Assembly: GCA_964255285.1 (NCBI GenBank)
Contig: CAXUUL010000005.1
Location: 62,001-88,725 of the forward strand
Direction: 5' to 3'
Length of the DNA: 26,725 bases
Source: Ionaspis alba
Lineage: Eukaryota
Shown: positions 2,010-11,973 of the stretch, one piece after another
Layout of the letters: the number at the start of each line of letters is the position of its first letter
How positions within the stretch are numbered: position 1 is the stretch's first letter
Made by a program: the position numbers and the translations under genes
The notes under the pieces: generated by a model
The model's input: only the letters and a program-made list of their open reading frames with translations
Databases searched by the model: none
Told to the model about the DNA's origin: nothing

Positions 2010-5000
2010 TCATGCCGTGACTACCCCCTCACTCAGCCATAGTCTAACACCCTCTCTCAATGCCCCGCCTTCAGCTCTTCGCCCATCGCGACCTTTACCC
2101 TCTCGGACACCCTCAGTAACCACGCTCCGCACAATTTCCTCCAATGCGCCAAGAACAACACGTCTGCATTCCTCGTGCGGGACTTCAAGAGCCGGAACCG
2201 GACCATCAGTGGGAGCACGCCGAATACTTGCGGGCCGTGAGAGTGAGAGCGGCGCAGCACCGAGGGGACCGCTGGCGAGACCCCTGGTGGGGGAAGGTGG
2301 CATTCTAATGTCCTTGTCGACGCGATTAGGAGATGGGGCACGAGAAGGCACACGAGAGGAATGACCACTTTGAGAAAGAATGCGCTCGAGGGCAGTCGTG
2401 AGTATCGGATCCGAGTCTAGGATCTGATCCTCAGCAAACTTTAACTCGAAAACCTCATCGTTATGCTGAAAGTCAGAATCATGGGTGATTGGAACTGTGT
2501 TCTCGGCGAGTTCTTTGCGTAGACGTCGTTGAAGGCGGAGCCGGTAGATGGAAAACGTTGCCGTGTCTGCAATGACAGTCGTGCTGATATCAGTCCACTT
2601 TCCATTGGTGGCAGGAAATTCCTTGGAGGTGGATGGATGGATGAGACGAGCTTCGGCTCTCATAGATAGCTTGATCTCCTGTTTAAGAGCTTCATAGGGC
2701 CGGACAGCTTGAAGAGAGAAGTCGGGATGATATCTTTTGAGCCATCCGGCCACATCGATAGTTGGCTCGGATTTGTTGCGCGGGGAATCAGACGTTGACG
2801 AAAGTCCGTAAGGGGAGAAATGGCCATTCGGGCTTCCCGCAATGACATTTTGGGCACGAGAAGAGTTGTAGGATGATGTTAGGGAAGACGAGAACGAATG
2901 GGTGCGTGGTAGATCAACATCAATGTAACCATCGTCTTCGTTTACCGATAGTTTAAGCGGCATACGCTCCATTCTAGTTCGCCGAGGGATGCTTCTCGCA
3001 GCCGAACCTCCATCCTGATCTGTTGGTTTTAAGCAGTCTTCGAGCGCTGGGTGACTTGTTAGGCCGCTAGTAGATGAATTCCCATTTCCGTCCACAGTGA
3101 GCGCTGCAGCCTGTTCAACCATATGTGACAATCGTGTGGTTGTTGGCGATCTTTCCTTGTCCTTTGGAGCACGAGTGTCCGCGAGAGCTTCCTGCGAAGA
3201 CAGGAAAGCATCACTTTCATCTGTCGAAGACCCTCGTCGGTTGCTCCAAAACCCACTAACCATACTACCCCAGCGTCCGCCTCCGGAGCCGCTGGTACTT
3301 AGAGCAGAGCTTTCGGACCTTTTGAGCGTATGTGTCAAAGCAATAGATGCCAGACTGCCGCTGCTTCCTGGTCGTTGCACGCCCGCGGTTCCTGGTGGCG
3401 CTTGGGTTGACAGGTTTGAGAAATGAGGGGTTGGCAGCGCAGTATCCGCTATGATGGTTGAGGTCGAGGACTTACGCGTATCGCCAGCGCGAACAGGGAT
3501 CGCTAGTGATGCGCTTCTGATAGATCTTGCGTCTGAAGTGCGTCTGGCAAGGGCTTCGGGCGCGAAGTCGTTGTTTTCGGATTCACCGCCACCAGCACCA
3601 ATGAGCGAGAAACTTACGGTTCGTGCATGATCGCTGGCGTTCGTACCATTTCTGCGGGGGCGAGTGGTATTGACCTCTGTAGCCCTAGATAGCGATTGAT
3701 CACGAATCGGGGGAAGTGACGAGGGACTCTCTGAGTATTTCATGCTTGGATGAGACGAGAGGGGGAGCTGGGATGTTGGAAGCGAGACGCAGCCTGGAAT
3801 AAATGTCGAGAGCAGAAAGATCAAACGTCTGGCGGCCATTTTGTCGCAAGAGACGATAACTGTCCGCTGTTTGATATGGTTCTCGTCTTTACCCAAATCT
3901 TTCAATTGCGCACGGCGCCGCCGATTCTGCGCTGGTGCGATCGAGCCTAGCCAAGAAGTATGATTTCCGAGAAATGTGGTAAGAAAAGCGAAAAAGAACG
4001 TAGTCTGCTCTCTGTCTCCTGCCCAACGTCCAATCCAGCGTGCTTCCTCCCTCCAGGCACCCCATCGGGCTTGGCCAGTCACCACTCTACGTGTTCTGAG
4101 CCCACCGACGATCCTCTGGCTTGTGATGGCAGTCTCCTTCTGGATGATCGCACTTTCTTGAAGACACCCAGGCATGACATGGATGCTTTGTTGTGTAGGC
4201 TGCTTTGGCTTCTTGAATTTCGTGCTTCCAGATCTTGCCGGCGGCGCAGCCATCAGAGGCGCAAGTGGGGTCGAATGCTCCAAAACTGTTCGAAGCGTCC
4301 TGCTCGCAACGGCCTCCAGTAGTTCTAGTGCTCTACTGACCACGTTCCAGTGAGTAAGTATGTGAGAGATGTGGAGATTCAACACAGTATCGACCCCCGA
4401 AAGCGATGCAGTACTCCGCGCCTCCATGAACCTTGCGAAGACACCGTGTTCGGCGTGCCATGACGTCGCAGGTGTAGAGTCATTGTAAGAAGAACCCAAA
4501 GATGATACGCCATGATGAGATCCTTGAGAACGTAAGCGAGGTTGTGAACCATCTGTTGGAAGTTGGATAATGACCGCGATCGCATACATGGGGACCTTCT
4601 TCTGTTTGACGACTTTTCTGCCACTCCCGTTGTCGAACAAATCGTCGTCCTTGGCAGTGGGATCCGAGCCATGGTTTTGATCCATCTGATCCGGTTCTTG
4701 TGCCACTTCCTCGGCATTCGGTGACACGGATTCAGGCAAGTGAACGGAGAAGAGCCGGGTAAACATGATCGAAGGCCTAGAGTACTGACTTGTTCGATTA
4801 TCCGTGTAATTAATCTCTTCTTTGGACAGGTCGGCTACACTGGTAGACCGAACGAGAGGTGTTCGCTTCCTCGTGAAACCGCCAGATGATAAGGGACGTG
4901 CAACATTTGGACTTCTGTTGCCACTGTTTAGAGCGTCAGGAGATTTTCTCGGAACAATATGGAGCTTTGTGCCTGGTTCGATCCGAAAGCCTGGAGCTCC

Positions 5001-9400: not shown

Positions 9401-11973
9401 TCCTCGGCTTCGTTTTCGATTGAGATGGACGAGCACTCGAAATGCTCTTGGCAATGCTATTTTTCGTTTCTCGAGCGCCTAACTTTACTCTTTCCGTCTT
9501 CATAGCCTGATCTTCTCCATAGCCATTGCTTACTGAGCCAGTCACGGGTGTCACTACTTTGCTCGATGAGTCGCCACCGTGCTTATGAATGTTATGGAAG
9601 CCCGTCCTTGTTATACTCTGCTCTTGTGGCAGTGCTTGATGCAAAGCCTTTCGACGTTGAGGATGACGGAAAATAAGATCGTCGTGAGTGTCCATCCAGC
9701 GTATGAGAGAACCATACCGCTTCATCGTGCTGGCTTGGTGTGGTGACCTCGACGATGACAATGAAGGCGCTGGAGAGTTCTTAGAATGGTCTATGCCTGA
9801 TCCATGCATTTCTAGCGATGCGCTTAGACTCGTGGTCGAATGCTGGGCCCTGAAATGCTTGTTCTTTACTCTCGCGGAAGGGCCATCGGGCAATCCGGAG
9901 GGCTGTCGATACATATACGGTATTGATATGTTTCTCATTTCGTTCTCCATGATGCCCATCATCTGCACCTCATACATTCTGATTCTCGGTACAAAGACAT
10001 CGCGTTTCGATGGGTCCGAGGTTCTCTTGGAAAATGTCGAGGTATTTGTAGTATGACCTACACCGTCGTCCATCGAAGCGGTCCAGAATGATATGTCCAC
10101 CCACTGAGGCATAGCATAGAGCCAGTGGTCTTTGTCAAAGTCTCCTCGATTCATCTGGTCTCTTGAGAAGCTACTCTTTGGTTCTGAAAGCTGGGATGTA
10201 TTGATGGAACTATCGAGGCTGCGGAAGCTTCCTGCTTCATTGGGCTGAACGTGTGAAATTTCGGCTTTCGCGTTGTCCCTCGGACGTGCTGCATGATGCG
10301 TCGGCGCCCTGTACTTGAACAAAGGAACGGAGTGTAAGGGTATCCTCGAAAGACATATCAGATCTATCCCGATACCATTTTCAATCAGATTGTCGGTTGT
10401 GGTGATAAGTAAATTGCGATCTACTTCGAATACACCTGTGCCTGGAGTAATGATGACTATGGAAAGCCCAGTCCTTACGAGGTCACGATCGATATAATCC
10501 TCTGAGAACTGGGATGATGCAAGATTGATAGCCTCCAGAACATTGCCTCGTATTGCCGGGGTCGGAGTCCCAGCGATGATCTGGACCGGAGTGTCTTGAG
10601 GAATAGAAATTCCTTCTTGAGCCCAAGGGACATATTCATTCGAAGAAGCCTTACAGATAGACACATCACGGAGGAAGACTTTGAACTCCTTCTTCAGCGA
10701 CCTCAGAATGGCACTCCATTGACCAGAAGCCATATCGCTTACAACGACTCGATAGAAGTCCTTGTAAGGTGTCTTGTTCGTGGGCGAGTATCCACTTGCA
10801 TTGTGAATATCCTCGTTTGACCTTTCAAAGTCCAACGACAGCCGCCTTTCATATTGCAGCCTCGTGAAGAGGATGATACTCACCAGATGTCGAGCGCCGA
10901 TACTCTGCCAGCGCTTGAAGAGCTCCGGAAGGAAGCCATTGATGACCTTGTGGAACATGATTTCCCCTGTGCCGTCGGTATCGAAGTCCCACATCTCCTT
11001 GGACATCTGGATGAAGAGCACGTAGCGAGCAGACTCACTCCGGAAGATCGGTTTCGTCGTAGGATCAAAGAACGCGGACTGTGTCTTTTTGCTTTGGATA
11101 TATATTGTCTTGACCTCTGCTTTGATAGTGCCCAAAAACAGGACCTTTTGTCCCTTGTAGACAGATTTGTTGGCCAATTCGGAAACGACCAATCGCCACA
11201 TATCTGCTCTAGTCAGGTAGGTATCTTTGAACGAGACTTCCACATGTGATGCCGAGTGGGAGCTTCGCTCGATCTGACTACTGATCAGCCTCGACATACA
11301 GGGAAAACTACGGGACTTTCCGAGTCGCTGACTTCAGTGACCATGACCTGAGTGCGATTCTTGAACCCAAGGGCAGAGGCTATCTTGTGCGAAATGGACA
11401 CCTTGCAAACTATCAGCTACTCATCAGTCCATACATATCTGAAGCAGACCTCGAGGTTTGGGTGCTTGGCCATAGAGTCAGAGTCCATTTCACCAATGGT
11501 GAACACGAGAGTAGGACAGTGCGGAGGTCTGTCTTCCGATCTAGCTGGGCAAAGTCAATTGGGAATAAGTAGTTATGTTGTACGGACGACCCACTTGATG
11601 TTCTGCTGCCCTGACTAGGACGTCCGCTACTACGACGCCTAGGGTGCATGGTTGGCGACTCCATTTCAAGGGCCATGATCCGCATTCGAGTGCCGACAAC
11701 CACGTTTTGGCCAGCAAACAGGGAGGGATTGACAAGTACATCGTCCTTCGCAAACGCTTCGTCATGAAGACCTAAAGTGCAGATGACCTTTTCTAAAGAA
11801 GCATGATGTTCTATCCAAGGAGACGTCTCATCAGTGTGAAGTGTTTGTGCATCCCGTTCGGGTTCGCTCCCGGTAGTATGATTCAATGCAAAGCTCCCTG
11901 TTGTGCCCTGGCGAAATTGAGATGCTCGGAGAGTGTTTGCACGGGAAGATCCCACCATCCCGTTTGTAGACAT
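6429..11973 (-). CDS. IML1: Vacuolar membrane-associated protein Iml1 (SEACIT/GATOR1 subunit, DEPDC5 orthologue)
   Basis: Exons 11973-11595, 11544-11450, 11401-11333, 11273-6429 with GT-AG introns of 50, 48 and 59 nt (start ATG could be 11973 or 11958). Motifs: FRSESARYVLFIQMSKEMWDF, GNVLEAINLA, YIDRDLVRTG, GIGIDLICLSRIPLHSVPLF, KWKSLCSPASVPLTT, RLSRGFQ; DEP domain [23 protein letters not shown]...FFQHVEKRHDFRDGNFFY. Confidence 0.95.

Follow-up and report, generated by a model that had tools for sequence, protein, structure and literature searches.

Several fungal gene clusters bring together non-homologous, functionally related genes, among them the GAL, DAL and nitrate-assimilation clusters, each of which comprises the steps of one metabolic pathway, is co-induced and keeps its composition where present. 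Another kind of association is described by Hane et al. 2011 (PMC3219968), according to whom filamentous ascomycete genomes evolve with gene content kept and gene order scrambled (mesosynteny). The locus treated here was compared with both. In a 26,725-nucleotide stretch of the assembly of Ionaspis alba, a lichen-forming fungus (contig CAXUUL010000005.1, positions 62,001 to 88,725 of the forward strand; hereafter the window), IML1 stands next to a gene of the FNIP/Lst4 family. The complexes to which such proteins belong have opposite, coupled roles in the nutrient switch of TORC1 (target of rapamycin complex 1): according to PMC9864104, Iml1-Npr2-Npr3 (SEACIT/GATOR1) is the GTPase-activating protein (GAP) for Gtr1 and Lst4-Lst7 is the GAP for Gtr2, as a first-pass annotation of this DNA had already described.

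Like the GAL, DAL and nitrate clusters, the window places two non-paralogous genes of one pathway side by side. Unlike those clusters, it joins antagonistic signalling subunits, lacks the genes of their partner subunits, and holds a pair that is retained no better than unrelated neighbours. The likeness to mesosynteny, or residual microsynteny, is closer in kind, as here too a small set of genes keeps its linkage while lineages differ in order, orientation and spacing; the difference from the phenomenon of PMC3219968 is one of scale, with a block of four to five genes on metagenome contigs considered here and not whole chromosomes or a genome-wide rate. A literature search found no paper combining Lst4, Iml1 and synteny.

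The two genes are adjacent and co-oriented, the IML1 stop (6429) and the FNIP ATG (5666) being separated by 762 bp with no detectable gene in this spacer, in agreement with the ~760 bp of the first-pass annotation. That annotation had further proposed a functionally linked pair, possibly co-regulated or kept in dosage balance; its gene identities and the adjacency stand, and the adjacency is shared by the window's clade, but conservation beyond that of unrelated neighbours was not found. Since the pair is kept no better than the unrelated neighbours of IML1, it is probably ordinary inherited gene order, a remnant of an ancestral gene block. By a rough estimate, ~30 upstream TORC1 genes among ~9,000-10,000 would yield at least one adjacent pair in about one genome in 10; one such adjacency, unless shown to be conserved, therefore carries no significance.

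Both gene identities given by the first-pass annotation were right, with Pfam matches to IML1, DEP and DEPDC5_CTD for the one and to FNIP_N for the other, and so was its view that tandem duplication is not involved, as the two proteins are unrelated in direct comparison (best BLASTP E 0.036 over 39 low-complexity residues) and in profile comparison (hhalign probability 0.07%).

To place the pair among relatives, the metagenome scan by IML1 alignment gave 127 confirmed stretches, of which 80 loci were taken into analysis and clustered at 93% nucleotide identity into 47 groups. Their flanks were searched by tblastn with the window proteins, with two family hidden Markov models (HMMs), with Pfam, and by all-against-all clustering of the flank open reading frames (ORFs). 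Thirteen of the 47 groups had at least 8 kb on both sides of IML1 and formed the fully evaluable set. Within 10 kb of IML1, these 13 groups harboured FNIP in 4, a VCX1-like cation exchanger in 8, a SNF2-type helicase in 7 and MCM6 in 2. The retention of FNIP did not differ significantly from that of VCX1, SNF2 or MCM6 (Fisher p 0.24, 0.43 and 0.64, respectively), and no FNIP excess was found; the expectation that adjacency would exceed background microsynteny thus failed (4/13 vs 8/13 for VCX1 and 7/13 for SNF2). Among the nine evaluable groups in which FNIP is missing are contigs that come close to Glonium (89%), Ophiobolus (78-81%) and Cadophora (93%).

The first-pass annotation had named IML1-VCX1 and MCM6-FNIP as the flanking pairs against which IML1-FNIP should be gauged. 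A VCX1-like homologue lies upstream of and divergent from IML1 in 16 of 48 groups, the window counted (L001, L002, L009, L010, L015, L018, L026, L027, L040, L046-L048, L054, L058 and L059/63, as numbered in the survey). Unlike FNIP, it keeps a near-constant distance and orientation wherever present, it extends to lineages in which IML1 shares only 33-37% identity with that of the window, and the SNF2-type helicase comes next after the exchanger gene in 10 groups. The IML1-VCX1 pairing is more rigid than IML1-FNIP, and the VCX1-like gene is the best-kept neighbour of IML1. MCM6 adjoins FNIP in just one further group, L080, although IML1 has MCM6 in its vicinity in L041, the L064 group, L070 and L080. 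In one distant lineage, represented by L064 and L067-L070, MCM6 and IML1 are divergent neighbours, MCM6 being upstream at ~1.6 kb, and FNIP is not found within 10 kb. In L080, by contrast, the FNIP_N ORF stands between MCM6 and IML1. The L064 lineage and L080 would fit an old MCM6/FNIP/IML1 block from which FNIP was lost or moved in the L064 lineage.

For a view over greater distances, nine deep clades were delimited from the IML1 tree and 272 clusters of flank ORFs were compared among them. Those present in at least two deep clades were VCX1 (3), FNIP (3, or 4 with L080), MCM6 (3) and SNF2 (2); the other multi-clade clusters were shadows or other exons of these four, plus one oxidase cluster from a large family. 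Like the linkages of MCM6 and VCX1 to IML1, that of FNIP is old and patchy. As VCX1, MCM6 and SNF2, which have no TORC1 link, also persist, FNIP is one of several persistent neighbours of IML1.

Layout is as variable as presence. Of the 80 loci, 21 have FNIP no more than 10 kb from IML1; they correspond to 9 of the 47 groups (the flanks of most groups being too short to judge), and these 9 groups show six different IML1-FNIP layouts, convergent and reversed order included. L018/19, near Pleopsidium, carry the tandem with ~1.6 kb between the genes and no gene detected there. In L010, L015/16 and L027/28, near Mycoblastus, the tandem is spaced by 1.8-2.9 kb with conserved opposite-strand coding-like sequence between, GFA-like in L010; because their spacers share that sequence, L010, L016 and L027 were dropped as direct tandems. 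An S28 peptidase gene intervenes in the L002 group (near Pseudocyphellaria), where FNIP is inverted and convergent with IML1. FNIP is upstream of IML1 in four others: directly, with 570 bp between the ORFs, in L075; with a GDA1/CD39 gene between in L071; with an oxidase gene between in L024 (79% to a Pleosporales IML1); and in L080, where MCM6 and FNIP are divergent neighbours (L080:1-12290). The FNIP_N ORF of L080 is short and divergent (28 bits against a cut-off of 25) and was found by Pfam and a family HMM only. Because three more distant lineages have FNIP upstream, the tandem is probably not the ancestral layout.

The tandem itself characterises the clade to which the window belongs. Both proteins have their nearest named relatives among Lecanoromycetes (Xylographa, Lambiella and Trapelia, ~50-55% identity), and a single-gene FastTree of IML1, midpoint-rooted and with long-branch warnings for L075, L078 and L080, places the window with these, in an Ostropomycetidae clade. 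Eleven named Lecanoromycetes had both proteins among the matches listed, and in seven of them the IML1 and FNIP protein accessions are consecutive (Xylographa parallela, bjoerkii, opegraphella, soralifera, trunciseda and pallens, and Lambiella insularis), which, going by GenBank numbering practice, points to adjacent genes. The accessions are three apart in two Teloschistaceae (cf. Caloplaca sp. 3 and Loekoesia sp. 1), and the two genes are on different contigs, that is, unlinked, in Bachmanniomyces sp. and Pseudocyphellaria aurata. Furthermore, 27 FNIP clusters, matched by hand, pair with an IML1 cluster on equally long contigs, as do both genes in all four assemblies closest to the window (4/4).

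Gene content kept, order scrambled and unrelated genes kept alike are the pattern of residual microsynteny, and all three were observed; order and orientation are not fixed where the pair is present, and its adjacency is not kept above that of unrelated flanking genes, as a selected pair would have it. IML1 and FNIP would then be ordinary single genes of an old block of MCM6, FNIP, IML1 and the VCX1-like exchanger, joined in other lineages by the SNF2-type helicase; such a small MCM6/FNIP/IML1/VCX1 block does seem to be old. Filamentous ascomycetes would have retained it in pieces, its members being shuffled by inversions and insertions, and in the window's lineage the shuffling would have left the two genes in tandem with a 762-bp spacer. 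Each gene would have a promoter and a terminator of its own, with separate transcription most likely, and the common Rag/Gtr role would be a coincidence of ancestry and not the cause of the neighbourhood. We infer that the linkage was retained neutrally.

Several points weigh against ordinary inheritance. No other neighbour of IML1 occurs in as many deep lineages as FNIP (3, or 4 with L080), and FNIP persists in L024, L071, L075 and L080, where the VCX1 pairing is lost, so that there may be a modest excess retention of FNIP near IML1, though in few lineages. The counts come from a non-random sample, 80 of the 127 confirmed stretches, in which Lecanoromycetes and Dothideomycetes predominate, and from mutually related groups, and hence are not independent. 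FNIP also evolves fast, and very divergent copies may escape detection.

That selection holds the pair together so that the two Rag/Gtr GAP complexes are co-regulated or balanced in dosage, for example by way of a common chromatin domain or read-through, is an unlikely alternative to ordinary inheritance, despite the opposed roles of the complexes, the co-orientation of the genes and their short spacer, the direct adjacency in seven named species and probably also in L018/19 and L075, and the recurrence of the linkage in 3-4 deep lineages. Retention is 4/13 for FNIP against 8/13 and 7/13 for unrelated neighbours, the pair is convergent in the L002 group and reversed in L024, L071, L075 and L080, and other genes are inserted between the two in most lineages. 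Because orientation, order and insertions vary, read-through or a shared promoter is not the conserved feature. A Pfam and ORF search of the window found none of the partner genes Npr2, Npr3 and Lst7. The amino-acid-control motif TGASTCA is absent upstream of both IML1 and FNIP, which is a weak test; it occurs twice in the window (304 and 16805) vs 5.75 expected, and as neither copy is upstream of either gene, a shared amino-acid-control motif was dropped as a candidate. The genes are unlinked not only in Bachmanniomyces and Pseudocyphellaria, as noted above, but also in both model yeasts, where the IML1 loci are YJR138W and SPBC26H8.04c. LST4 is YKL176C and SPAC30C2.07 in these two yeasts, according to PMC7032718.

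A second reading, likewise improbable, is an ancient selected linkage that predates the split of several ascomycete classes and survived rearrangement, with MCM6 and VCX1 as passengers of a protected block; the advantage would lie in close linkage, or in a common chromatin neighbourhood, of the opposing Rag-GAP scaffolds. Rather more doubtful is that linkage and not adjacency is selected, co-adapted alleles of Rag regulators being held within a few kb with their order free. Such selection would suit the many arrangements in which FNIP still lies within 10 kb of IML1, and its presence there in deep lineages that have no other neighbour in common with the window (L024, L071 and L075), but an equally patchy deep linkage to IML1 is seen for MCM6 and VCX1, neither of which has a TORC1 role, and FNIP is not within 10 kb in 9 of the 13 evaluable groups. 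That the adjacency is an assembly artefact can be all but dismissed: the assembly graph is split by a minor variant at 6368-6645, a stretch not bridged by any single contig listed from sequencing run X1, yet depth is even over the region, no joints or loose ends occur at the spacer, and the IML1-FNIP neighbourhood recurs in relatives' independent assemblies and in metagenome contigs.

If selection did keep the pair, it would be a rare eukaryotic case of two antagonistic signalling regulators held together and would suggest that the Rag/Gtr switch is under a dosage or allele-matching constraint. As ordinary inherited order, its main value is that of a worked negative control. The breadth of FNIP_N in Lecanoromycetes and the old MCM6/FNIP/IML1/VCX1 block are possibly useful by-products.

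Features of the window around the IML1-FNIP pair, with the evidence for each
Feature	Position	Strand	Evidence
MCM6, 5' part, truncated by window edge	3..1461	-	Pfam MCM_OB 1.7e-43
FNIP/Lst4-family gene, single exon, 1218 aa	2010..5666	-	FNIP_N 55.7 bits
IML1-FNIP spacer, 762 bp	5667..6428	.	IML1 stop to FNIP start
IML1/DEPDC5 (SEACIT/GATOR1 subunit)	6429..11973	-	Pfam IML1, DEP, DEPDC5_CTD
IML1/VCX1-like divergent intergenic region	11974..13869	.	gene limits on either side
VCX1-like cation exchanger, several exons, limits approximate	13870..15319	+	Na_Ca_ex in two ORFs

MCM6, the FNIP/Lst4-family gene and IML1 follow one another on the minus strand, all three in the same orientation (see the table). 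The MCM6 ATG, read from the translation, is near 1461, ~548 bp downstream of the FNIP stop; because this unrelated gene trails FNIP at so short a distance on the same strand, close tandem spacing is the local norm. The window MCM6 is 82% identical to that of L041, and its homologues in L041 and L064 carry MCM6_C. Beyond IML1, the VCX1-like gene gave Na_Ca_ex matches of 5e-14 and 3e-16 in two ORFs. Further along, at 17323-20270 on the minus strand, two sizeable ORFs (274 and 621 aa, measured stop to stop) match no Pfam family and have no homologue that could be detected among the 80 IML1 loci.

Searches of the spacer gave neither a tRNA nor an Rfam match at E<=0.1; its ATG ORFs do not exceed 63 aa, and it showed no similarity to the IML1-FNIP spacers of other lineages. 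It should contain the 3' end of IML1 and the FNIP promoter. Contigs of run X1 together span the whole region, with no joint that contradicts the gene order. This run may be the source sample, hence it does not support the order independently; independent support comes from relatives, as these show the same arrangement. The run also contains a minor variant at 1007-1184, 1625-1700, 6401-6644 and 8563-8738, with a depth of ~25-39 against ~105-122, which suggests a second strain or allele in the sample.

The FNIP/Lst4-family assignment of the 1218-aa protein rests on FNIP_N (PF14636), for which the HMM search suggested as a check by the first-pass annotation gave E 1.4e-14 and 55.7 bits (cut-off 25), with positions 1-144 of the 148 in the profile matched. 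The domain was matched in all 25 aligned relatives (best E 5.2e-32), and the N-terminus, MIGRLL..., agrees with the family consensus MLGRLL.... The other two domains are fainter. FNIP_M (PF14637) stayed below threshold in the window protein (E 0.12 with the full-length sequence, 0.012 with a 300-aa piece), with sub-threshold matches in 18 of the 25 relatives; FNIP_C (PF14638) had no match in the last 300 aa of the window protein, and among nine C-termini (the window and eight relatives) one reached 16 bits, still sub-threshold. Compared with Lst4/FNIP1-FNIP2, the non-catalytic partner of Lst7/FLCN in the Gtr2/RagC GAP, the protein has FNIP_N above the cut-off, and the weak FNIP_M and FNIP_C signals stand in the expected order; it differs in having these two below threshold and in its long low-complexity inserts. 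A sequence-profile search of PDB chains returned no FNIP or Lst4 chain, only chance-level LAS1L matches (E ~0.7). At E<=0.001 the protein had 215 relatives; nearly all of the 120 listed carry PF14636, and each named species occurs once among them. FNIP_N proteins are widespread in Lecanoromycetes and occur on a Pleosporales-like contig (L024), and the rows covered of the TORC1 protein table in PMC11836306 hold no Pezizomycotina FNIP/Lst4 accession; the criteria of that survey, as far as the available part goes, may under-call the family.

The IML1 gene consists of a long 3' exon, the 1622-aa ORF at 6429..11297 (-), and is completed by an open stretch at 11413..11973 (-). Its start was set at 11973 by tblastn with named homologues (MSTN..., as in homologue P0153), and homologue alignments indicate about three short introns between 11600 and 11290. 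A 16-codon gap in every homologue alignment marks one 5' intron of ~48 nt. The protein matched IML1 (PF12257, 1.3e-117), DEP (PF00610, 1.5e-25) and DEPDC5_CTD (PF19418, 4.4e-08; 33.4 bits against a cut-off of 27), and thus belongs to the Iml1/DEPDC5 family, having the IML1 domain, DEP and the DEPDC5 C-terminal region together. These are the domains of Iml1/Sea1 (DEPDC5), the catalytic subunit of SEACIT/GATOR1, in the usual order; the window protein is 44-63% identical to annotated Lecanoromycetes IML1 proteins and shows nothing unusual in comparison with Iml1/Sea1. The 5' exons of the window alone gave no Pfam match to IML1_N_fung, though they align with homologues. Among Didymosphaeriaceae, the IML1 models P0266, P0277 and P0312 are 2164-2301 aa long and carry an added SET domain (PF00856), which is probably an annotation fusion with a neighbouring gene.

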